A stretch of DNA of 64,000 nucleotides, taken from positions 11,914 to 75,913 of the forward strand of contig JBDLJQ010000005.1 of NCBI GenBank assembly GCA_039714255.1, in the 5' to 3' direction. The translations under genes were made by a program, and so were the position numbers. Below the pieces are notes generated by a model, which was not told where the DNA came from, ran no database searches, and worked only from the letters and a program-made list of their open reading frames with translations. Each line of letters opens with the position of its first letter. Position 1 is the first letter of the stretch. This stretch comes from Acidobacteriota bacterium. GTDB taxonomy: Bacteria > Acidobacteriota > Aminicenantia > UBA2199. Shown in pieces: positions 8,441-20,204 of the stretch.

Positions 8441-9400
8441 TTAAAAGCTTGGTATGACTACATTTTGACAGGAAGGGTTTAACAGTGTTCCCTTTGCTAC
8501 AACAAAATGATTGTCCTTCAGCTTGAAGCTGTAATTACATTTTTCTTTATATACAATTGCATTGGCAATGGAACCCACAACCGGATAAGCATAATACACA
8601 GTCATGTTAATCTTGGTGTTGACCTTGTAGTTGATGATTTTTTCCTGCCCAACCGCAAGTTTGAAGGATTTATGGGAATCGAGGGGATCATCTGTGATCC
8701 ATGAAAATTTAACAATAGCTGCCGCATTATTGCGAATCTTTAAAAATCGTTCCTGTTTGCAGTCGGTATAAAACTTGACCGATGACAGCGCATCATTTTT
8801 GACCATCGTGTTTGCCATGACCGGGATGTGTGTTCTTATGGTTTGACATTTTCCGCCGTAATTTTTTTCGCTGTAAAGGGAAGCTTTATTCATGTTGAAT
8901 ATTTTAATTGAGGATACCATGTTATTCATATTTCCCTGACCACTCAAGTCTGCATTGTTCATCTTCAATTTGTATTGACGACCTTTATAATTGTTATGTT
9001 CAAACAATATCAAATGGGGTACTTTGAATACTTGATTTGCCGGGCAGGTGGCGTTTATTTTGATTGATGAAATACCCTTCATTCCCACTTCTGTGAGCAT
9101 GAGGTTTTCAACATCTTTTTTCACTGTTTTGCATATCCCTTCATAGTTTGCACGTGAAAACAAGGCGACTGATGTTGCACTCTTGATACGGATTGAGACT
9201 ACTCTGTTATTCATATTGATAGCTGGTAAGCTCAAATCCGCTGCATTAGCAGACAATTTAACACTTTCGCCCTTAAAGTACAGTGAATTGTAGATGATAA
9301 TTTCCGCAGCACCAACTGTTGAAACCGTTAAACATGATATAAACAGTGCCATAATGAGTGAAAAACAGACGTTTCTTTTTAAGTTACTTTTTGTTTTCAT
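8441..9400 (-). CDS. Secreted beta/gamma-crystallin domain protein (two domains) with a C-terminal beta-sandwich
   Basis: Signal peptide; four Greek-key motifs (YNSLYFKG..NNRVVS, FSRANYEG..KGISS, FEHNNYKG..NNMVSS, YSEKNYGG..NDALSS). Confidence 0.85.
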   Translation of the reverse strand: MKTKSNLKRNVCFSLIMALFISCLTVSTVGAAEIIIYNSLYFKGESVKLSANAADLSLPAINMNNRVVSIRIKSATSVALFSRANYEGICKTVKKDVENLMLTEVGMKGISSIKINATCPANQVFKVPHLILFEHNNYKGRQYKLKMNNADLSGQGNMNNMVSSIKIFNMNKASLYSEKNYGGKCQTIRTHIPVMANTMVKNDALSSVKFYTDCKQERFLKIRNNAAAIVKFSWITDDPLDSHKSFKLAVGQEKIINYKVNTKINMTVYYAYPVVGSIANAIVYKEKCNYSFKLKDNHFVVAKGTLLNPSCQNVVIPSF

Positions 9401-9667
9401 TTTTCTCCTTTATATTTTTTTTAATTATGAAGGAAATGTTTCTGAAATCAAAAAAAAATTCATTCATAATAGAATTATATGAAAAAAAAAGAAAAAAATC
9501 TCATATAAAAACATTTGTATCACTCTAAAGTACGGTTATTAAAAATTAAGAAGTATACTTGAGGGTATGTTAAAAAAATTCATTACTTGTGGAGAAAAAT
9601 CAATTTATAGGAAACCGATTCTGACTTTCTTCTATACTTTTTATGATTTTCCCCTATAATATATTTA

Positions 9668-10471
9668 ATGGATAGATCTTATGGATTTATAGCGGGTCAG
9701 GAAAGCATAGAAGAACATCTGGATTATGCCATAACTCATAACTTTGATCATATTGAGATCGATCTTCGCCCCGGAAATTCAGGATTGAATGGATCCGGCC
9801 TGGAAAAAATATCTGAATTAAAAAGAATTGTTTCAGACAGGAAGGTCTCTTTCAGTTTTCATCTCCCCGGATCAATTAACTTTGCAAAAAGCAAATTTAT
9901 ATTTAAAAGAAAATTCCTTAACTATCTCAGATCTTCAATTAAACTTGCATCCGAACTGAATGCTACCCATATCACCGCTCATACCGGATATTTTTCCAGA
10001 TCAGTTTTATGGTCGGACCCGCGGGAAGATTTTATTCAAAGAGCGGTGGATAACATTCTTGTAATTTCTGATATATGTGAAGAGTTTAATATAAAATTTG
10101 CTCTGGAAAACCTGATCCCCATGCCAAAACATTCTGCATACCATTTCATAGGAGATAATATAAAAGATTTTCAATTGATTTTTTCATTGGCCGGATCAAA
10201 CAATTTAGGGCTCTGTCTGGATGTGGGCCATTCAAACCTGAGTGAAGGTGCTTTGGAATATATCAAACATTTTGAAAACAGGATCGTTTGTGTTCACTAC
10301 CACGATAACATGGGTAAAGAAGATCAGCATCTTGAAATAGGTGAGGGTAATATTATCTGGAAAAATGTGATTGAAAATCTGGACAGGATCAATTTTAAAG
10401 GCCCCTATATTTCTGAATGCTTCCGGTCTGAACCTCACCTCACAAGAAAGAGATTGTTGGATATTATTTAG
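9668..10471 (+). CDS. Sugar phosphate isomerase/epimerase family TIM-barrel protein (AP_endonuc_2)
   Basis: SFHLP, AHTG, ALEN, CLDVGH and VHYHDN..DQHL.IGEG metal-binding motifs. Confidence 0.85.
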   Translation: MDRSYGFIAGQESIEEHLDYAITHNFDHIEIDLRPGNSGLNGSGLEKISELKRIVSDRKVSFSFHLPGSINFAKSKFIFKRKFLNYLRSSIKLASELNATHITAHTGYFSRSVLWSDPREDFIQRAVDNILVISDICEEFNIKFALENLIPMPKHSAYHFIGDNIKDFQLIFSLAGSNNLGLCLDVGHSNLSEGALEYIKHFENRIVCVHYHDNMGKEDQHLEIGEGNIIWKNVIENLDRINFKGPYISECFRSEPHLTRKRLLDII

Positions 10472-10477
10472 ATAGGA

Positions 10478-13420
10478 TCAGGCACTTCCGGTAAAATCAA
10501 AACTTATTTTTTTCTGAAAAACATTGATAGTTGAGAAAATATATTTTAGCATATGCAGTTCTGCCTCTGTAAGCTCACCGGGGTCGATGTTGTTGTCCGG
10601 TTTCCGGTTATCTTCAATATTTTTAACCTGGTGTTTTAACCTGACCTTCATAAGAAAATCAAATATTTCCTGAAATTCCCTGCCGGAGGACTCTGTCATA
10701 TCATCTGTTCTTAACAGGTGTGAAACCCTTGCCTGAGTATTGGTTTCCCTGATCCTGTTCTTCAGAGAATATATCCTTCCGAAATTTACCAGCAATTGTA
10801 TCGGGTCTTTGATGTTGAAAGTGGATTGTTTTTCTCCTCCGGACTCAAGCTGGATATTGCCGAAAAACCCGATGGGGGGCTTGTATTGAAGAGCGTTCCT
10901 TGCAATATGCTGAAGGAACAGGGGGTTAATGTCTATTTCACTGTCGATAAAAGACCTGAGATCATCAACCATTGAACTCTCTCCGGATACTATCCTGAAA
11001 TCGAAGAAGATGCTGACCTCCAGAAGGTCTGATGGCGAGGAGTTGTTTATCCAGTTCCTGAAATATTTTTTCCAATCTGACAGCGGTTTGTTCCATTTGC
11101 TGTTCATTGCCATTATTTCCCCTGAGCAAAAAGTATAGCCGCATGTGTTCAGCCAGGTTGATACCCTCTTTCCCAGTTCCAGAAAATATGTTTCAGCTTC
11201 TTTTTTTAATTTTTTGTTTTCTGTATCTTCATAGATTATTGCATTGTCCTGGTCGGTTAACAGAGTCTGCTCTTTCCTCCCTTCGCTTCCCATTGTGATA
11301 AATGAAAATTTCAATGGGGGTTTTCCCAACTCATCAATGGCAAAATCGATCAGCCTCTTCAGTATGGAGTCGGCAATGTAGGAAATTTTACTGCATATGA
11401 TCTTCGAGTCGGCCCCGCTGTCTGTCAGAACCCTTACAAGGGATGGAACCCTTTTATATTTTGGAAAAACTTCCTGTACAAATTCTGTTTCCCGGATCTC
11501 AGATATAAGGAGAGAGGATGAATTGTTCTGAATGTTGAAGATCAGGTCCCTATTGACCGATCCGATTATCTTTCCGCTGAGATCTGTTACTGCCAGGTTC
11601 CCGATCTTTTTCTCTCTCATCAAAATAAGGGATTCAAATATAGAGGAATTCCGGGATATAGAGATCACGGGAGCGCTCATAATATTCATTACAGGAGAAT
11701 CTGCGGAAATGCCTGCACCTATGACCCTGTCCCTCAGGTCTCTGCTTGTGAGAACTCCAATATATTCATTCAGCACACCGGCTTCCGGAAGGTTGTTCCT
11801 GATGAAAATAATATCCTGTCCGGTCCTGGACATTAACGATACTGCATCTTTTATCGGGGAATCAGGTGAACAGGAAATAATTCCTCTGAGGTGATTGATA
11901 AGAGGATCTTCAAGAATAAGCTGAGAGGTTTTCAACTCTGCCATCAGTTTGTTCTTTTCTTCTTCGGAACGGAACCTTTCAGTGATATCTTCAACAATTC
12001 CGTCATAATATCTGTTGTCTCTGTCAGGCCCTTTTACCAGCACCAGAGATATCATCAATGTTTTAATATCTCCATCGGGCCTCTTTATCCTGATCACTTC
12101 ATTCTTAATAAATCCCTGTTCAAGCAGGTTTTTCCCGAGGTTTGCCCATTTTTCAGTGGATATAAAAAGATCCGGGATCTTTATCTCTGAAACATCAGAC
12201 AATGATCGAAAACCGAGAATATTAAGAGCGGCAGGGTTTGACTCCACTATTTTTCCTTTACGTCCCAGGGTGGAACGGAACACTCCTATCTTCAGGTTAT
12301 CTGTAAGGTTCCTGTATTGTTCTCTGCTTTCTCCCAGTTCTTCTCTGATCTTTTTGCTGCTGCTGATATCATTGACAACGATTGCATCTCCATAGTCCTC
12401 TCCATATGAGATCTTTGATACATAGAGGAGTACGTCTTTAATATCTCCATCTTTCTTTATAAATCTGCTCTCTACAGGATCTGAAACTGCTTCCCCCTTT
12501 ATCAGGCCTTTGAACTTACCAAATTCCGATTCATCTCCTGCCTGATCCGGAGGAAATATTGAGTGGAGGTCCAGTTTTTCGAACTCCTTTTCACTATATC
12601 CTAAAAATCTGTGAATATATTTATTGGAATAGAGTATCTTATTTTCCCGCACGATAAGGATACCCTGGGTTGTGGCTTCGACAAGAGACCTGTATTTTTC
12701 CTCGGATTTAATGAGCCTGTTCTCAATGGCCCTCCTCTTCCTCTCAATTTTTAATCCCATGTTCATTATGTAGAAAAGTATTAAAGAGATGAACAGGAAT
12801 ATTATAAAAGATACCAGGATAATTTTTTTTGCAAGTTGGGCTATCTCCTTGTCAACATCTTCCGTGTATATTCCAGTTCCGATTATCCATCCCCAGGGTT
12901 TGAACTCCTTCACATAGGATAGTTTGGGTACAACCTTCGCCGGATCATCTTTCCATTGCCACATATATTCGATAAAGCCCTGTTCACTGTCCCTGCAAAG
13001 CTCTACCATGGAAATGAACATTCTTTTTCCTGAAGGGTCCACTTCCCCGGAAAGGTCTTTCCCCTCCAGTGCAGTCCTGTAAGGGTGCATCACCATTCTC
13101 GGCTGTTTATCGATTATCCAGAAATAATCTTTATTCTCCCTCCCGTACCTTAAAAACCGGATATCTTTTTTTGCCAGTTCTCTGGCCTCTCCGGGAGTGT
13201 ATTTTTCCCCTTCGATCTCACTATTATATTTATCCAGGATACTTAATGCAGAATTGGTAAGTTGCTGGATCATCTCTTTTTTCCGTTCCATGATACTTTT
13301 TTTAAACTGGGGAACGATAAAGAAAAAAATGGAAAAAATAAAAAGCCCCACAGCCAGAGATGCGGGAAAGATCAATCTGAAGTTTGATATGGAGAGCCCT
13401 GAACTCTTATTGTCATCCAT
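10478..13420 (-). CDS. Membrane sensor: TM-sCache_2-TM-PAS-PAS-CBS pair-DUF294 nucleotidyltransferase-DUF294_C
   Basis: Cache (LRYG..DYFWI..MVMHP..IEYMW..KLSYV..WGWIIGTGIY); PAS ends NDIS and EDITER; CBS pair; NTase motif MGSEGRKEQTLLTDQDNAII; FFDFR. Confidence 0.88.
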   Translation of the reverse strand: MDDNKSSGLSISNFRLIFPASLAVGLFIFSIFFFIVPQFKKSIMERKKEMIQQLTNSALSILDKYNSEIEGEKYTPGEARELAKKDIRFLRYGRENKDYFWIIDKQPRMVMHPYRTALEGKDLSGEVDPSGKRMFISMVELCRDSEQGFIEYMWQWKDDPAKVVPKLSYVKEFKPWGWIIGTGIYTEDVDKEIAQLAKKIILVSFIIFLFISLILFYIMNMGLKIERKRRAIENRLIKSEEKYRSLVEATTQGILIVRENKILYSNKYIHRFLGYSEKEFEKLDLHSIFPPDQAGDESEFGKFKGLIKGEAVSDPVESRFIKKDGDIKDVLLYVSKISYGEDYGDAIVVNDISSSKKIREELGESREQYRNLTDNLKIGVFRSTLGRKGKIVESNPAALNILGFRSLSDVSEIKIPDLFISTEKWANLGKNLLEQGFIKNEVIRIKRPDGDIKTLMISLVLVKGPDRDNRYYDGIVEDITERFRSEEEKNKLMAELKTSQLILEDPLINHLRGIISCSPDSPIKDAVSLMSRTGQDIIFIRNNLPEAGVLNEYIGVLTSRDLRDRVIGAGISADSPVMNIMSAPVISISRNSSIFESLILMREKKIGNLAVTDLSGKIIGSVNRDLIFNIQNNSSSLLISEIRETEFVQEVFPKYKRVPSLVRVLTDSGADSKIICSKISYIADSILKRLIDFAIDELGKPPLKFSFITMGSEGRKEQTLLTDQDNAIIYEDTENKKLKKEAETYFLELGKRVSTWLNTCGYTFCSGEIMAMNSKWNKPLSDWKKYFRNWINNSSPSDLLEVSIFFDFRIVSGESSMVDDLRSFIDSEIDINPLFLQHIARNALQYKPPIGFFGNIQLESGGEKQSTFNIKDPIQLLVNFGRIYSLKNRIRETNTQARVSHLLRTDDMTESSGREFQEIFDFLMKVRLKHQVKNIEDNRKPDNNIDPGELTEAELHMLKYIFSTINVFQKKISFDFTGSA

Positions 13421-13438
13421 GGTTTTATGTACAATTAA

Positions 13439-13467
13439 ATAGTAAATTCATTAAGGGCCTTTGTCAA
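13439..13467 (-). promoter_or_regulatory. sigma70 promoter for the Cache-DUF294 gene
   Basis: Minus strand reads TTGACA-17 nt-TACTAT, ending 18 nt before the ATG. Confidence 0.6.
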
Positions 13468-13486
13468 CAAAAGTGAAAAAAATACA

Positions 13487-13550
13487 AGGTTAAGGGGTAA
13501 GGGGGAATCTCATCCCCTAACCTCAAACCTCTGGCCTCTTACCTATAACC
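13487..13550. repeat. Degenerate 7-bp tandem repeats in inverted arrangement
   Basis: CCCCTAA CCTCAAA CCTCTGG CCTCTTA CCTATAA (13514-13548), faced by AGGTTAA GGGGTAA GGGGG (13487-13505). Confidence 0.55.
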
Positions 13551-13571
13551 AATCTTTATAAATCTAATTTA

Positions 13572-15476
13572 TTATTTAGCTATCTCTTTTTTCTTCTGGG
13601 TCATTAAGGAAACTACTATCAAAGTAATAAAAGCAAGAGGAATTGAAATGATACCGGGCTGACTCAGGGAGATCGGTGAACTGGCCTTATCAAATCCATA
13701 TCTTGCAAACATATCGGGAGAGATCAGAATGATCGACAGAGCAGATACGATCCCGACAAAGATCGAAGCTGCAATACCTTTTGCAGTAGTTTTTTTCCAG
13801 AAAAGGAGCATCAGAATAGCAGGAAGATTTGCAGAAGCAGCTACGGCAAATGCCCAGCCTACCAGGAAGGATACATTCATACCCTTAAATAAAATTCCCA
13901 GGATAATGGCAATTGTTCCGATAACCAGAGCAGCTATTTTTCCTGCTCTGACCTTCTGCTTTTCGGTCATTTTAAGATTCATAAATCTGTCCATAAGGTC
14001 ATGGGCAATTGCTCCGGACGAAGCAACGATCAGTCCGCTGACAGTTCCTAAAACCGTGGCAAAGGCTATGGCCGAGATAATGGAAAAAAGGCCGATCCCG
14101 AAATATTTGGCCAGCAGTGGAGCAGACATATTACTTGAGGAGAGGTCCAGTACCCCATGGGTCATGGCCCCCAATCCCATATAGAGGGTTAAAATATAGA
14201 AAAATCCGATTCCCACAATTGCAACAATTGTCGATTTTCGTGCATCTCTCTGGCTGGGGACAGTGTAATATCTAATGAGAATATGTGGTAGAGAAGCAGT
14301 CCCGAAAAACAGGGCAAGCATAAGAGAAATAAAATTTAATTTTGACCAGAAATCCGAACCTTTATCCACTTTAAATTTAAGTCCCGGGCGCATTATTGTT
14401 TTTCCCGGTGTCGGGTTTTGATACCAGATCGTAACATTGTTTCCCTCATCTTTTAATGATGTCTTTGTAAATCTTACGATCTCACTCTCTTCAATTACAG
14501 ATAAGATTGAAAAAGGGTTTAATCCTCCGGTACTATCCACTTCTTTTCCATTTTTTACCAGTTTACTGAAGTGTCCCACCTGGTAGAATTTTCCTTCTGA
14601 AGCCGGTGCTCCGTTATACAGGATAGTCTCATCAGATTTAACAGTTTTGGAGAGAGCTTCTTCCAATTGATATGATCCGTTAACTTGATTTACTTTCCAC
14701 CATGTGCGGATCCCTTCTTTTTCCAGTTTTACAAAATCATTATCTTTAGCTTTAACCTTTCCGGCAACTTTATATTCGGAAGAATCCAGAGTGAATGAAC
14801 CCCCATCTAAAGTGGCATTTATGGTTAAAAAATCTTTATAATTTTCGCTTGGTTTCTTATTAAGCCCGCCGGTAATTAAATAAATGGTCAGGACAGTTGA
14901 AAATACGATCAGTAATCCGCCTTTTATAAACTGAACGTAAGTTGTTGAGGTCATACCTGCAGTGGATACTATAATTATGACTACTGTGCCCACAATAAGA
15001 ACTCCTACATAATGTTCAAGGCCCAGCAGGGGTTTGATCAGGGCACCGGCACCTACCATCTGAGGGATCAGATAACAGATAGATACAATAAGAGTACTTA
15101 TAGCAGCCATAAGCTGGATCCCTTTTGAATTAAATTTGGAATCCAGTGCATCTGTAAATGTATATTTTCCCAGTCTTTTTAATGGTTCTGCAACTACAAA
15201 AAGGGCAACTATCCATCCCGCAAGGTATCCGATGGAATAGAGGAATCCGTCATATCCCGAAAATGCTATCATTCCGCATATTCCAAGAAAAGAAGCGGCA
15301 GATAAATAATCTCCGGCAAATGCGATACCATTTACACCCCAATGGATAGTTCCGCCTGCGGCAAAATAACCGGAGGCAGTTTTTGTTTTCCTCGCAAAAT
15401 AGAAGGAAAGGCCGAGAACTAATGCGACAATTACAACAAAAAATAATACAGCAAGAAATGATACAGGATAGGTCAT
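13572..15476 (-). CDS. actP: Cation/acetate symporter ActP family (SSS) with a large soluble insertion
   Basis: NGIAFAGDYLSAASFLG, YLIPQMVGAG, GTASLPHILIRYYTVP, AFATVLGTVSGL and AFAVAASANLP motifs; preceded by DUF485. Confidence 0.88.
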   Translation of the reverse strand: MTYPVSFLAVLFFVVIVALVLGLSFYFARKTKTASGYFAAGGTIHWGVNGIAFAGDYLSAASFLGICGMIAFSGYDGFLYSIGYLAGWIVALFVVAEPLKRLGKYTFTDALDSKFNSKGIQLMAAISTLIVSICYLIPQMVGAGALIKPLLGLEHYVGVLIVGTVVIIIVSTAGMTSTTYVQFIKGGLLIVFSTVLTIYLITGGLNKKPSENYKDFLTINATLDGGSFTLDSSEYKVAGKVKAKDNDFVKLEKEGIRTWWKVNQVNGSYQLEEALSKTVKSDETILYNGAPASEGKFYQVGHFSKLVKNGKEVDSTGGLNPFSILSVIEESEIVRFTKTSLKDEGNNVTIWYQNPTPGKTIMRPGLKFKVDKGSDFWSKLNFISLMLALFFGTASLPHILIRYYTVPSQRDARKSTIVAIVGIGFFYILTLYMGLGAMTHGVLDLSSSNMSAPLLAKYFGIGLFSIISAIAFATVLGTVSGLIVASSGAIAHDLMDRFMNLKMTEKQKVRAGKIAALVIGTIAIILGILFKGMNVSFLVGWAFAVAASANLPAILMLLFWKKTTAKGIAASIFVGIVSALSIILISPDMFARYGFDKASSPISLSQPGIISIPLAFITLIVVSLMTQKKKEIAK

Positions 15477-15763
15477 TAGTTTTCCTCCTCTTCACTCGAA
15501 TTCATTTTGTTTTCCATTTTCGTACAATAATGGTTGTAGAGAATACCCATAACAATTGCCAGGATAATTAAACCGAATCCATAAAAAACAGCAAGGTTTA
15601 ATCCAAGAATCACTTTTACTCCCATGGTCTTCGGTGAGAGTGTATTGATAAATACAAATCCTGCATAGATAAAAGAATAGATCGCAAATAAGATCAATCC
15701 GACTTTGGATTTAACTTTTTCTGCATTGTCTTTTCCCATTTTAACAGCTTCACCATGTTGCAT
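15476..15763 (-). CDS. DUF485 (YjcH-like) small membrane partner of ActP
   Basis: Two TM segments (LFAIYSFIYAGFV; GLNLAVFYGFGLI); TAATG coupling to actP; AAAGGAGG before the ATG at 15763. Confidence 0.85.
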   Translation of the reverse strand: MQHGEAVKMGKDNAEKVKSKVGLILFAIYSFIYAGFVFINTLSPKTMGVKVILGLNLAVFYGFGLIILAIVMGILYNHYCTKMENKMNSSEEEEN

Positions 15764-16097
15764 ATTGCCTCCTTTAGTAGTTCTTTTGATAAAAATTAAC
15801 AAAATGGTTTAATTTAAAATTAAATTAAAATAAAATTTACCATTATTTTTTACAAGATTCAATATTATTTTAAATTTTAATAATATCTTAAGAGAAAATA
15901 TGGTAATTTCCCCACCCCCTTAGCATCATCAAATATAATTTTTAATTTTTTTAGAACCAGATCATAATTCCCGGTGATTAGATATTTTTTATTTGAGATA
16001 TTTTCTTTTTTATTTATGTAATATTATTATGATCATATTTATTTTTAGATCAGGAACATTTTTTTTATGGTTTAAAAAAATAATTAAAGGAGGCAGA

Positions 16098-16532
16098 ATG
16101 AAAAAAAAAGTAAGTTTAATTATTGTGAGTTTTCTTGTATTAATTTTATTTCCGGTACTGAGTGCAGAACAATGGTATGACAAGACTCTTGCTGGAAAAA
16201 AAGATTGTGAGAGTGTAAGAATGCTTCTTCATAACAAATTAAGTTATCCGATAAAGGTCACCGGACTTTATTTCTATGATTATGAAAAGAAGAGATGGAG
16301 AGTTAAAGCAATTCTTCCCAAGATCATCAAAAGTAATGATAGTAGAGAACTATTGGGAAGACGGCATTTAAGAAATGTGAAAAATAAAAAAACCTATTTT
16401 AAGGTCGTTTTCAGGAAAGGTAAAATCAACCGGCGGGGGAAATATAAATATAGAGGTAAAAAAGATTTTAAATATACTCAAAAATTTACCTGTAATGACA
16501 GTATGAATCAATTTCTTTCAATTGGTGAGTGA
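16098..16532 (+). CDS. Secreted, highly basic hypothetical protein
   Basis: AAAGGAGG then ATG at 16098; signal peptide MKKKVSLIIVSFLVLILFPVLSA; K/R-rich; two Cys. Confidence 0.75.
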   Translation: MKKKVSLIIVSFLVLILFPVLSAEQWYDKTLAGKKDCESVRMLLHNKLSYPIKVTGLYFYDYEKKRWRVKAILPKIIKSNDSRELLGRRHLRNVKNKKTYFKVVFRKGKINRRGKYKYRGKKDFKYTQKFTCNDSMNQFLSIGE

Positions 16533-16694
16533 GATTTATTAGAATAGTAACTAATAAATTTTAAAACAGACTTATTAGTAAATTATTTTTTGCCCATTTG
16601 ATTGTCGCAGGCAGAATAAAAGTTTAAATGATTAAAAAAGATCAAATATTGAGATATTTTTCATTTAATTGTATTTATATTTTAAGGAGAGATC

Positions 16695-17225
16695 ATGAAA
16701 CATAAATTTTTTGTGACAATTATTTTGATTTTTTGTTTTCTTTTTATTTCATCTGCTTTTTTAATGGCTCAGGAGGAAGAAGAGGAATTTGCACAGGAGA
16801 GGCCAAATCCCTGGGAACTGGTCAAAGCTGACAGGGGTTTAAATAAACTTCAGATCAGAAAACTTGGAAACGGACGTTTTTTTATTAATATGAGAGGGAT
16901 CAGGAATACTATTAACAAAGCCGGGATCAATGAGAAGATAACTATCATCCTGCAGACAAAGAACGGACGTAATATTGCTGTTCTTGGCAGCTATACACCT
17001 GCCAGGGGAAGATCTTTCAGGGGAAGAAGATTTTCTTCGATGCGCAATGGATTTGAGGATCCGCTTACAGCACTGGGCCCGTATTTCAAAAATAAAACCA
17101 TTAAAAGGGCAATGTTCCGGTTAGCTTTTAAAAATTCAAAAGGATCCATTATGGCGCTAAAGTTACTTCAGATCGCCCCGGCTGGTTTTAAAAGTAAATT
17201 ATCACAAAAAACTATGATTAGATAA
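16695..17225 (+). CDS. Secreted hypothetical protein (acidic N-terminus, basic body)
   Basis: AAGGAG SD; signal peptide ending AFLMA; QEEEEE followed by an R/K-rich domain. Confidence 0.75.
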   Translation: MKHKFFVTIILIFCFLFISSAFLMAQEEEEEFAQERPNPWELVKADRGLNKLQIRKLGNGRFFINMRGIRNTINKAGINEKITIILQTKNGRNIAVLGSYTPARGRSFRGRRFSSMRNGFEDPLTALGPYFKNKTIKRAMFRLAFKNSKGSIMALKLLQIAPAGFKSKLSQKTMIR

Positions 17226-17403: not shown

Positions 17404-17465
17404 ACTAAACCCGGTTTTCGCCGGCAGTGAATCTCCTTCCATATTTTTTATATATGGAGGTTTTT

Positions 17466-18440
17466 ATGAAATTTAAAATTTCATCATTATTACTGTTAGT
17501 CTTTTTCATTGTTTCATGGCCTTCCTGTTCAGATTCCGGTGATCATGTCTCAAAAACAGATAAAATAAAACTTCTTGTTGTCCATGCAGGATCTCTCTCT
17601 TTACCATTCAGAGAGATATCAAAAGGTTTTGAAAAAAAATATCCGAATGTAAAAGTTCTGCTGGAAGGTTACGGGAGCAGGACTGCGGCAAGACAGGTGT
17701 CTGACCTGAAGATGAATGTGGATGTCCTTGGTTCTGCAGATTCCGATGTGATAAAAAAACTGCTCTATCCTGAATATGCCGATTTTTGCATCGATTTTGT
17801 TTCCAATGAGATGGTTATTGCATTTACAGAAAAGAGTAAAAATAGCAGGGTGATAGACTCCGGCAACTGGTATGAAATATTACTGATGGATGGAGTTGAA
17901 CCGGGCCATTCCGACCCGGATTGTGATCCGTGCGGGTACAGGTCTGTATTCACAATGGAACTGGCGGAAAAATTTTACGGGGAAAAGGGCTTATTTAAAA
18001 AATTGCAAGGTAAAATTAGAAAAAAAAACATAAGGGCTAAAGAGACCGATCTGCTTGCTTTGCTTGAAGCAGGAGAACTTGACTATATATATATTTATAA
18101 AAGTGTAGCAGTTCAGCACGGCCTGAAGTATGTTGAACTTCCGGGTGAAGTAAATCTGGGAATATCAGAATATAAAGATTTGTACGGGACAGTAAACATA
18201 TCACTTTCAGGAAAAAAACCGGGACAATTTATTGAAAAAAAAGGCGCCCCTATGATCTATGGCCTGACAATTCCGAAATTGTCAGAAAACCGCTCTTATG
18301 CCGAAAAATTTATTATTTATATTATTTCTGAAGAAGGAAAAGAAATAATGAAAAAAATGGGACAACCTCTCCTTGATCCCCCTTATGTAGATAATCCGGA
18401 AAACCTGCCGGAGAGTTTAAGGAGATATTTTAAAAATTGA
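17466..18440 (+). CDS. wtpA: Tungstate/molybdate ABC transporter substrate-binding protein WtpA (probable lipoprotein)
   Basis: HAGSL..PF, SAD, SDPDCDPCGYRS, RAKETDLLALLEAGELDY.Y.YKSVA.QH and LP.EVNLG motifs; start at ATG 17466 after GGAGG. Confidence 0.9.
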   Translation: MKFKISSLLLLVFFIVSWPSCSDSGDHVSKTDKIKLLVVHAGSLSLPFREISKGFEKKYPNVKVLLEGYGSRTAARQVSDLKMNVDVLGSADSDVIKKLLYPEYADFCIDFVSNEMVIAFTEKSKNSRVIDSGNWYEILLMDGVEPGHSDPDCDPCGYRSVFTMELAEKFYGEKGLFKKLQGKIRKKNIRAKETDLLALLEAGELDYIYIYKSVAVQHGLKYVELPGEVNLGISEYKDLYGTVNISLSGKKPGQFIEKKGAPMIYGLTIPKLSENRSYAEKFIIYIISEEGKEIMKKMGQPLLDPPYVDNPENLPESLRRYFKN

Positions 18441-19189
18441 AATTTAAAGCCTTAATATCATTTTTAGCATTCCTGCTGATCTTATTTATTATAGTTCCAA
18501 TGTTCAAACTTATATCAGGAGCTGATCCGGGAATAATGAATGAAACTATCAGTGATCCTGAAGTTACGGGATCAATATTTTTAACCCTCAGAGCTTCATT
18601 GTGGGCAACAATATTTGCATTATTCACCGGAATTCCTCTGGCCTGGGTCATTGTGAGGAAAGATTTTCCGGGGAAAAAAATATTGGAGGGTTTGATCGAC
18701 CTCCCTGTTATTATCCCCCATACAGCTGCCGGGATCGCACTTTTGTCAGCCTGGGGAAGGAATTCTTTTTTTACAAAAATGACGGGTTTGACTTTACCCG
18801 GAACGGAAGCTGCAATATCGATAGCAATGTTTTTTGTATCTGTCCCTTTCCTGGTGAACTCTGTAAAGAACGGCCTGAAATTAGTGGATTCAAGATATGA
18901 AAAAACAGCAAGAACACTCGGTGCAACTGAGGCACAGGCATTTTTTCGAATAACCCTTCCGATGATAAAAAAGTCAATTTTATCAGGCTCTATAATGATG
19001 TGGGGAAGGGGCATATCAGAGTTTGGTGCTGTGATAATACTTGCATACCATCCGAAAACAGCACCGGTCCTTATATTTGAAAGGTTCCAGAATTTCGGGT
19101 TGAAATATGCTATCCCGGTTACGGTTCTAATGGTGGTTATCAGCCTTCTTATCTTTATTATCACCCGTATGTTCGAGGGGAGGAAGTAA
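18437..19189 (+). CDS. wtpB: Tungstate/molybdate ABC transporter permease
   Basis: DLPVIIPHTAAGIALL, EAA-like loop ARTLGA, WGRGISEFGA. Confidence 0.88.
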   Translation: MKFKALISFLAFLLILFIIVPMFKLISGADPGIMNETISDPEVTGSIFLTLRASLWATIFALFTGIPLAWVIVRKDFPGKKILEGLIDLPVIIPHTAAGIALLSAWGRNSFFTKMTGLTLPGTEAAISIAMFFVSVPFLVNSVKNGLKLVDSRYEKTARTLGATEAQAFFRITLPMIKKSILSGSIMMWGRGISEFGAVIILAYHPKTAPVLIFERFQNFGLKYAIPVTVLMVVISLLIFIITRMFEGRK

Positions 19190-19190
19190 A

Positions 19191-20204
19191 ATGCCTGTAA
19201 CCCTCAAAAATGTCGGTAAAAAACTGAAGGGATTTGAATTAAAAGAGGTTGACCTGAATATCAGGGATGGAGAATATTTTGTCCTTCTCGGCCCCAGCGG
19301 ATCGGGGAAAACAAAAACCATTGAAATAATATCCGGCCTCGAAAAACCTGACTCAGGTTTGATATCAGGAGTTGAGGGGAAAAATATAGGTTTTATCTAT
19401 CAGGACTATATGCTGTTCCCCCATATGAGTGTGTTTGAAAATATTTCTTTCGGCCTCAAGGTCAGAAAGTTACCTGCAGATGAAATAAAAAATAAAGTGA
19501 TGTCTGTTGCAGAGATCTTTGATATAACCCCCCTGCTTGATAAAAATGTAAAGAACCTCTCCGGCGGGGAAAAACAGAGGGTAGCTATCGCAAGGGCCAT
19601 GGTAATTTCTCCTGATATTTATATCCTTGATGAACCCACATCTGCCCTGGACAGGAATCTGAAAGTAAAGACCCAGTCTCTGTTCAGGGGCCTCCATAAA
19701 GATACAAAAAAAATATTCATTCATGTTACCCACGATTTTGAGGTTGCTCTTGCACTTGGCGACAGGATCGCAATAATTTTTAACGGTGAGATCGTTCAGG
19801 CCGGAACCCCGGATGAGATATTTTCTGCACCGGTTTCAAAAGATGTTGCTGATTTTCTCGGTTATAGAAATGTTATCAGGGGAAGTATTGTTGACAATAT
19901 GTTCAGGCTGAACGGAGTTTCAATTGCAGTGCCGGAGCAGGAAGCATCCCTTGCCTATATTGCGATAAGATCGGATGATATTTTCCTTTCAAAAAAAGAG
20001 ATAAGTTCATCAGCAAGGAACTCTTTTTTCGGAGTTGTTGCCGGTATTGTTCATAAACCCTCCTCCATTGAGATAATACTTGATATAGGTTTCAGGTTGA
20101 AAGTGGATATTACCAGAAAATCCCTGCTGGAAATGGGAATAAAAGAAGGTGATAAATTGTGGGCTACATTTAAAGTTTCATCAATAAAGGTTTTTAAGCA
20201 TTAA
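19191..20204 (+). CDS. wtpC: Tungstate/molybdate ABC transporter ATPase with C-terminal TOBE domain
   Basis: GPSGSGKT, LSGGEKQR, LDEP, HVTHD; C-terminal SSARN...ITRKS..EMGI TOBE. Confidence 0.88.
   Translation: MPVTLKNVGKKLKGFELKEVDLNIRDGEYFVLLGPSGSGKTKTIEIISGLEKPDSGLISGVEGKNIGFIYQDYMLFPHMSVFENISFGLKVRKLPADEIKNKVMSVAEIFDITPLLDKNVKNLSGGEKQRVAIARAMVISPDIYILDEPTSALDRNLKVKTQSLFRGLHKDTKKIFIHVTHDFEVALALGDRIAIIFNGEIVQAGTPDEIFSAPVSKDVADFLGYRNVIRGSIVDNMFRLNGVSIAVPEQEASLAYIAIRSDDIFLSKKEISSSARNSFFGVVAGIVHKPSSIEIILDIGFRLKVDITRKSLLEMGIKEGDKLWATFKVSSIKVFKH

Follow-up and report, generated by a model that had tools for sequence, protein, structure and literature searches.

A transmembrane nucleotidyltransferase with a carboxylate-type Cache sensor and its symporter and putative phosphoesterase neighbours in an Aminicenantia bacterium

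Analysis of a 64,000-nucleotide stretch of DNA from an Acidobacteriota bacterium (GTDB lineage Aminicenantia, UBA2199; assembly GCA_039714255.1, contig JBDLJQ010000005.1, positions 11,914 to 75,913 of the forward strand), hereafter the window, revealed a membrane receptor of 980 amino acids (aa) in which a periplasmic sCache_2 domain is joined to a nucleotidyltransferase (NTase) of the DUF294 family. It is encoded beside a monocarboxylate symporter of the SSS family with its small DUF485 subunit and beside a TIM-barrel protein resembling endonuclease IV (Endo IV). We tentatively propose that these four genes constitute one uptake module for short-chain carboxylates, in which a carboxylate-gated nucleotidyl switch, composed of a writer and an eraser, would act on the transporter; this is the reading we prefer, at just short of an even chance. 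The four genes are:

9668..10471, plus strand: MJ1311/Endo IV-like TIM barrel of 267 aa (AP_endonuc_2, E 6.9e-34), the proposed phosphodiesterase partner
10478..13420, minus strand: receptor of 980 aa with the order TM-sCache_2-TM-PAS-PAS-CBS-CBS-DUF294-DUF294_C, where TM is a transmembrane segment (open reading frame and Pfam)
13572..15476, minus strand: SSS monocarboxylate symporter, ActP/MctC-like, of 634 aa (Pfam SSF, E 2e-73)
15476..15763, minus strand: small membrane subunit of the DUF485 family, 95 aa if translated from the ATG at 15763 (PF04341, E 3.3e-9)

The DUF485, symporter and receptor genes all run in the same direction on the minus strand; the TIM-barrel gene is convergent with the receptor gene and ends 6 bp from its stop. 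An earlier, sequence-only reading of the window had described the receptor together with an upstream DUF485-symporter pair, and this arrangement was confirmed by the open reading frames (10478-13420, 13572-15476 and 15476-15763) and their Pfam families; the linker string DITERFRSEEEK that it had quoted, and had taken to be of a type that usually precedes a histidine kinase, was likewise found in the 980-aa protein. The receptor gene holds the only PF03445 (DUF294) match in the 3.2-Mb assembly, and its product is made up of the following domains:

12830..13291, minus strand: periplasmic sCache_2 domain, residues 44-197 (PF17200, E 1.6e-39, 135.8 bits)
11945..12700, minus strand: two cytoplasmic PAS domains, residues 241-492, ending in a DIT linker (TIGR00229, E 7.2e-26, two stretches)
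11501..11887, minus strand: CBS pair, residues 512-640 (Pfam CBS, two stretches, 514-633)
10493..11455, minus strand: GlnE/DrrA-like NTase with helical C-terminal domain, residues 656-976 (PF03445, PF10335)

Hydrophobic segments at residues 13-40 (TM1) and 192-226 (TM2) flank the Cache domain, and the Pfam matches in the PAS region, two stretches within residues 241-490, comprised PAS_9, PAS_8 and PAS. The earlier statement that the receptor carries no kinase, GGDEF or cNMP domain agrees with the Pfam search, in which none of these families matched the 980-aa protein at E <= 0.01 and neither HisKA nor HATPase_c was found.

Comparison of the Cache domain with solved carboxylate sensors gave matches to PDB entries 4k08 (E 3.6e-31) and 5g4y (E 1.6e-27). 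The residues Y99, W101, H112, F135, Y152, W154 and K166 correspond to Y90, W92, H103, F126, Y143, W145 and K156 of the sensor PscD, an identity at 7/7 positions, and all seven were invariant in an alignment of 21 full-length homologues. The passages on PscD in PMC5062169 name seven ligand contacts, report binding of glycolate, acetate, propionate and pyruvate, and place acetate in structure 4K08. Against the NCBIfam model of the MctS kinase only the sensor part of the receptor matched (residues 38-231, E 2.7e-21, 75.4 bits against a cut-off of 700). Because all seven PscD contacts are identical and invariant and the MctS sensor model matches, we consider it well founded, as far as sequence comparison can indicate, that the domain senses a C2/C3 carboxylate, as the sequence-only reading had suspected. 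The sCache_2 sensor placed between two TM helices is shared with the chemoreceptors PscD, McpP and Adeh_3718 and with the kinase MctS, and the seven pocket residues with PscD. In contrast to chemoreceptors and MctS, the output of the receptor is an NTase and not an MCP signalling domain or a HisKA/HATPase pair, and thus no response regulator or chemotaxis pathway is implied. The MctS kinase controls the SSS monocarboxylate permease MctP, so that control of an SSS monocarboxylate transporter would be a further point in common with the proposed role of the receptor.

In the output module, DUF294 (PF03445, residues 656-796) was detected with E 4.8e-44 and 150 bits against a cut-off of 21, and DUF294_C (PF10335, residues 834-976) with E 3.2e-37 and 128 bits against a cut-off of 22.5. 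The catalytic motif reads G711-S-E-G-R-K-E-Q-T-L-L-T-D723-Q-D725. It had previously been called intact, and this holds; the pattern G-S-x-G-R-x-E-x-T-L-x2-D-Q-D was invariant throughout an alignment of the CBS-NTase module from the window and 73 further loci (74 sequences); the spacing quoted at the time (GS..R.EQ...DQD) had to be corrected, since four residues and not three separate EQ from DQD. A later F-D was likewise invariant in the 74 sequences, as was D807, which may represent the third catalytic carboxylate. Both the motif and D807 were also invariant in the 21 full-length homologues.

An AlphaFold (AF2) model of the CBS-NTase module (pLDDT 92.7, pTM 0.80) was compared with solved structures using VIA-align. 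The top match was the N-terminal domain of GlnE (1v4a; Z 27.0, 324 aa, root-mean-square deviation (rmsd) 3.9), accompanied by DrrA (6yx5_B; Z 25.6, 295 aa, rmsd 3.5) and the adenylylation domain of GlnE (3k7d_A; Z 25.3, 305 aa, rmsd 3.0). These values lie well above those obtained where only the CBS pair of the model aligned to solved CBS pairs (Z 15-19), Foldseek agreed (E 1.3e-9 to 2.5e-8), and Pfam gave a weak GlnE match on the receptor (E 0.0051). All three top structural matches add AMP to proteins or remove it, which is a lead towards a protein substrate, not proof of one. The likeness to GlnE and DrrA, and by analogy to GlnD, consists of the fold of the NTase and its helical domain (Z 25-27 over 295-324 residues) and of the G-S...D-x-D motif. 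GlnE, GlnD and DrrA write AMP or UMP tags on proteins and each has a separate removing activity, and the idea of an opposing eraser is common to them and to our proposal. However, identity to GlnE/DrrA amounts to only 12%, no glutamine synthetase, PII or Rab target is implied for the receptor, and GlnE, GlnD and DrrA are without its sensor domains, its membrane anchor and a separate eraser of varying fold.

The full architecture is widespread, with >1,400 homologues at E <= 0.001 in sources labelled as Bacteroidota, Ignavibacteriae, Acidobacteria, Aminicenantes, Deltaproteobacteria, Phycisphaerae and others. From species genomes 79 loci were fetched, each with at most 8 kb of flanking DNA to either side of the match. 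An open reading frame fitting the NTase model was obtained from 77 of them (L037 and L061, which gave none, were left out of every count), and together with the window this yielded 32 loci of the Cache type and 46 of the cNMP type. An SSS gene, paired with DUF485 or DUF4212, was present in 22/32 Cache-type and 24/46 cNMP-type loci, and genes for acetyl-CoA synthetase and SatP/YaaH also recur in DUF294 loci. Among 72 genomes of the window's family, a symporter orthologue (E <= 1e-120) was found in 24 and PF03445 in 26, with 24 genomes holding both, two DUF294 only, none the symporter only and 46 neither, although these genomes are kin, so that the counts overstate independence and are not a statistical test. 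Within the genera g14 (12/28), g16 (3/6) and g1 it was the same genomes that held both genes; the symporter and DUF294 have plainly been gained and lost together. The linkage to SSS transporters, on which the sequence-only reading had staked its interpretation, was found both across the loci and within the family.

A second companion of the NTase emerged from neighbour clustering and a six-frame scan with our own profiles. A phosphoesterase is adjacent or fused to the NTase in 24/32 Cache-type loci (Metallophos in 13, PHP in 7, an Endo IV-like barrel in 3, GAF-HD in 1 and RNase_T in 0), four of the seven PHP partners being fused at the N-terminus of the NTase protein. Likewise, 24/46 cNMP-type loci have one within 500 bp (RNase_T in 21, Metallophos in 2, HD in 1), and in total 48/55 phosphoesterase matches in the examined loci fall within 500 bp of the DUF294 gene. 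The earlier claim that soluble cNMP-CBS-DUF294 proteins are accompanied by an exonuclease-like gene is confirmed by these 21 RNase_T loci and by a cNMP_binding domain in 7/7 sampled short DUF294 forms. What stays constant in all forms is the pairing of an NTase with an enzyme of some kind that cleaves phosphodiesters. The input differs between forms (Cache-PAS or cNMP), and the unit is usually accompanied by a carboxylate symporter.

This unit relates the locus to the soluble COG2905 proteins with the order cNMP-CBS-CBS-DUF294-DUF294_C (PA3233/PA3232 in Pseudomonas aeruginosa, Pflu5625 in Pseudomonas fluorescens; regulon of CrbS/R, that is MxtR/ErdR), which have a DnaQ/RNase T-like exonuclease adjacent and lie beside actP or DUF4212-SSS genes. 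Both share the CBS-DUF294-DUF294_C module (35-43% identity across the 74-sequence alignment, with the motif invariant) and a neighbourhood of small subunit, SSS carboxylate symporter, NTase and phosphoesterase. In contrast, the input of the receptor is an extracytoplasmic sCache_2 domain with two PAS domains in a membrane protein and not a cytoplasmic cNMP domain, and the place of the RNase_T partner, which none of the 32 Cache-type loci has, is taken here by the Endo IV-like barrel on the opposite strand. Published genetics also favour a coupling to the symporter: in Shewanella and Pseudomonas stutzeri, bioRxiv 10.1101/072470 reports cofitness between a DUF4212-SSS transporter and a COG2905/RNase T gene close to it, PA3232-PA3235 are induced together on propionate (10.1101/2022.08.25.505149), and Pflu5625 is under CrbS/R control (PMC5715377). 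The locus in the window is real and well conserved, and it is a variant of a catalogued module.

Some further forms were observed among these loci. In the Desulfobacterales loci (L002-L078) with double-cNMP forms, the exonuclease partner has 724 aa and shows a weak PAS match (E 2.8e-5) before RNase_T; Acs genes are often found near these loci. In L007, L008 and L013 a histidine kinase gene and a 77-aa gene lie between the exonuclease partner and the NTase gene. A protein of 378-442 aa is encoded between symporter and phosphoesterase in L105 (4397-5533), L113, L116, L117, L118, L120, L027, L058 and L075 and is absent from the window; apart from a borderline hit on the DcaP outer-membrane porin (26.9 bits, with the cut-off at 27) it matched nothing, and it may be a carboxylate porin of the module.

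In the mechanism that we propose, the periplasmic sCache_2 pocket would bind a C2/C3 monocarboxylate such as acetate, glycolate, propionate or pyruvate, and the signal would pass through TM2, the two PAS domains and the CBS pair to the GlnE/DrrA-like NTase. In the sequence-only reading, the PAS domains may in addition take in internal signals and the CBS pair the adenylate charge. The NTase would attach a nucleoside monophosphate from an NTP to a hydroxyl group, the likeliest acceptor being a protein and the best candidate the co-inherited DUF485/SSS transporter, and the Endo IV-like enzyme, as a putative metal phosphodiesterase, would take the tag off again. A protein, most probably the transporter or its small subunit, is ranked first as a substrate because of the GlnE/DrrA fold and the co-inheritance; a small nucleotide signal comes second and an RNA 3' end third.

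The second of these substrates would imply an NTase that answers an external carboxylate by producing a small nucleotide compound, for instance an oligonucleotide (linear or cyclic) or a nucleotidylated metabolite; the partner would degrade this product, which would act through a receptor of its own on uptake or metabolism. Pol-beta-type NTases do include second-messenger synthases, the partner folds include types known as phosphodiesterases of cyclic nucleotides or dinucleotides (Metallophos, RNase_T and GAF-HD_5, the last of which neighbours DUF294 in L003 and L066), and the unit of NTase and phosphoesterase is also found where no SSS gene is near. On the other hand, the nearest structures, GlnE and DrrA, act on proteins, PADLOC, which has CD-NTase models, gave 0 matches for the receptor or the TIM-barrel protein, and no candidate receptor gene for such a product recurs in the examined loci. 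We regard a nucleotide signal as unlikely.

Less likely again is an editing of RNA 3' ends, whereby the NTase would add untemplated nucleotides to the transporter mRNA or a small RNA and the partner would trim them, which would set the expression of the symporter. Enzymes of the RNase_T, PHP, Mre11-type Metallophos and Endo IV kinds all have 3'-end processing activities, and an RNase_T gene is the partner in the 21/46 cNMP-type loci mentioned above. In addition, the study by Price et al. (10.1101/072470) speculates that the COG2905/RNase T gene is needed for symporter expression. Against this stand the GlnE/DrrA-like fold of the NTase, with no CCA-adding or poly(A) enzyme among the structural matches listed, though CBS-pair matches fill most of the lists, and the result that positions 9000-17000 of the window gave 0 Rfam matches at E <= 1 and no RNA element that was obviously conserved; it would also be odd for an RNA enzyme to be a receptor anchored in the membrane and equipped with a periplasmic sensor.

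The preferred switch on the transporter requires an eraser, and the candidate in the window is the TIM barrel. The sequence-only reading had noted the absence of the exonuclease-like gene, which is correct in that no RNase_T-type gene was found in the 19 kb scanned around the receptor gene, but it had overlooked the plus-strand AP_endonuc_2 gene (9668-10471) that occupies this place. In the window's genus, six genomes (G001, G002, G003, G005, G006 and G007) hold both the barrel and DUF294, and the two are adjacent wherever one contig spans both (five loci), with differing outer flanking genes; a seventh genome of 88% completeness (G004) has neither. Orthologues of the barrel (E <= 1e-30) occur in 11/201 genomes of the class, belonging to three genera, and in none of the 11 does the distance to the genome's single PF03445 match exceed ~3.5 kb. 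In a phylum sample of 401 genomes orthologues at E <= 1e-40 were confined to the window's genus. In genera g5 and g16 the barrel gene is located inside the transporter operon, in the order DUF485-SSS-(porin-like)-barrel and facing the receptor gene, and in g12 and g14 the same operon slot is occupied by a Metallophos gene. Because barrel and Metallophos occupy the same slot, this exchange is a non-orthologous displacement in place.

The nearest solved relative of the barrel is MJ1311 (3WQO), both by sequence (E 1.8e-22) and by structure (Z 28.4), for which Table 1 of PMC2770678 gives the entry of a predicted Endo IV homologue. Barrel, MJ1311 and Endo IV have in common the xylose-isomerase-like TIM barrel; in contrast to Endo IV (15-18% identity), the barrel gene stands in the context of a transporter and signalling module and not of DNA repair. 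By fold, sugar epimerases (Z 23-26) come closer to the barrel than Endo IV does (Z 21.8-23.0), and a profile search also placed epimerases (E 6e-10) ahead of Endo IV (1.4e-6). Since the fold search cannot separate the two groups, the ligand positions were used to classify the barrel. An hhalign alignment to E. coli Nfo (probability 40%, E 2.9e-4) placed H65, H105, E147, D185, H188, H210, D219, H221 and E250 of the barrel on H69, H109, E145, D179, H182, H216, D229, H231 and E261, the same residue in 9/9 cases, at what we take to be the three-metal ligands of Nfo. These nine positions were invariant in 9 orthologues and are kept in MJ1311, whereas D-tagatose 3-epimerase keeps 5/9 and is without four His/Asp positions of the barrel. 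The NCBIfam model for Endo IV (NF002198) gave 20.1 bits against a cut-off of 244, and the best NCBIfam match was the phosphodiesterase CbiR with 57.1 bits, below its cut-off of 105. With 9/9 ligand positions kept against 5/9 in the epimerase, and with CbiR as the best NCBIfam match, a metal phosphodiesterase is the better, though unproven, reading of the barrel. A predicted complex of the CBS-NTase module with the TIM barrel scored 0.02 (mark 0.32) and weighs neither way.

That the barrel has nothing to do with the receptor, that it is either a sugar isomerase or an Endo IV homologue for DNA repair which descent has kept nearby, and that the receptor of this lineage does without a dedicated phosphoesterase, would suit the barrel's epimerase-ward ranking in fold and profile searches, the 8/32 Cache-type loci without a partner and the convergent orientation, because of which the two genes are not co-transcribed, but we consider it the least probable alternative and a distinctly improbable one, given that all 11 orthologues stand beside DUF294 in three genera with differing flanks, that g5 and g16 have the barrel within the transporter operon in the Metallophos slot, that L010 and L027 also have it, beside receptors of only 38-40% identity, and that it keeps the four His/Asp positions which the epimerase is without.

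Several points weigh against a writer/eraser switch on the transporter and hold our estimate of it down. A protein substrate does not follow from the fold likeness to GlnE/DrrA in itself. Nucleic acids are the best-known substrates of RNase_T, PHP, Mre11-type and Endo IV enzymes, and with such a pedigree among the partner folds, RNA or an oligonucleotide would fit at least equally well. No partner was found in the 8/32 Cache-type loci already mentioned (two of these at contig ends) and no SSS gene in 10/32, and the kinship of the family genomes, the nearness of the barrel to sugar epimerases, the 40% probability of its alignment to Nfo and the presumed nature of the ligand list belong to the same side. 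The literature found on DUF294 consisted of regulon, cofitness and domain-catalogue mentions, with no biochemistry of a DUF294 protein among them. Finally, growth on acetate changed only negligibly when the gene for the soluble relative Pflu5625 was deleted (PMC5715377).

For the transporter itself, two further features were recorded:

14337..14864, minus strand: predicted periplasmic insert of the symporter, 176 aa, residues 205-380, splitting the SSF match
13421..13571, minus strand: gap of 151 bp between the SSS and receptor genes, with a sigma-70-like site TTGACA-17-TACTAT at 13467-13439

In the NCBIfam search the symporter scored 437.6 bits with MctC (cut-off 670), 401.7 with ActP (750) and 328 with TIGR02711 (1099), all below the equivalog cut-offs. 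Its insert interrupts the SSF match and comes after six hydrophobic segments, from which a periplasmic location is predicted. An insert of 171-183 aa with 10 invariant positions was present in 17/17 DUF485-type SSS proteins beside Cache-type DUF294 and is less conserved than the symporter core (identity 0.49 vs 0.75-0.78); neither Pfam nor the ESM Atlas (best score 0.79) gave a usable lead for it. A direct contact between insert and Cache domain was considered and set aside, as Cache-type receptors also pair with DUF4212-type symporters, which are without the insert.

The small subunit encoded directly upstream has two hydrophobic segments and a PF04341 match of 37 bits against a cut-off of 28. 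Its longest open reading frame runs to a TTG at 15802 (15476-15802, minus strand), but the likely start is the ATG at 15763, with AAAGGAGG 5 nt ahead of it, and it is this ATG that the sequence-only reading had given as the end of the region. The DUF485 stop shares bases with the start codon of the symporter (TAATG). Within the 151-bp gap, the sigma-70-like site serves as a lead only, since the counts of such sites in the region were not above those of shuffled controls, and the promoter/terminator scan called no terminator-like site there, with counts again no higher than in shuffled controls.

Outside the four genes, a 319-aa protein with beta/gamma-crystallin and Inhibitor_I36 repeats is encoded at 8441-9400 (minus strand), just past the TIM-barrel gene, and its gene is not conserved beside the module in relatives. 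Divergent from DUF485, two open reading frames of 179 and 176 aa (15993-16532 and 16695-17225, plus strand) gave no Pfam or NCBIfam match; beyond them, the stretch 17427-20204 (plus strand) holds a gene for a WtpA tungstate-type binding protein (TIGR03730, 293.5 bits against a cut-off of 242.75) and, after it, open reading frames of 250 and 337 aa. At about 16000, a change of sign in the GC skew and a minimum of the cumulative skew coincide with the point where the genes change from the minus to the plus strand.

In many phyla, importers of acetate and lactate commonly have a DUF294/COG2905 enzyme encoded next to them, and in Pseudomonas these enzymes are co-regulated with acetate genes. Compared with these, the Cache version offers a defined and testable input, a C2/C3 acid, and a defined neighbourhood of a transporter and a single phosphodiesterase. 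The new point of this analysis is that an Endo IV-like barrel fills the place of the "missing exonuclease", and that it does so by displacement in place. As phosphoesterases of five unrelated folds occupy the proposed eraser position, the shared chemistry is narrowed to the making and breaking of one phosphodiester bond. In its strongest form, the proposal would amount to a third mode of transmembrane signalling besides phosphorylation and cyclic-nucleotide synthesis, in which an extracellular ligand sensor directly drives GlnE/DrrA-like tagging of the neighbouring transporter or its small subunit with a nucleotide, a dedicated eraser reverses it, with at least five exchanges of the eraser's fold (RNase T, PHP, metallophosphoesterase, HD and Endo IV-like), and uptake of short-chain acids is gated post-translationally; this we hold to be rather doubtful. 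If the tag is placed on a protein, transmembrane receptors would gain a class of output not seen before and the uptake of short-chain fatty acids a further, new level of control, and a role would be assigned to MJ1311-like barrels.

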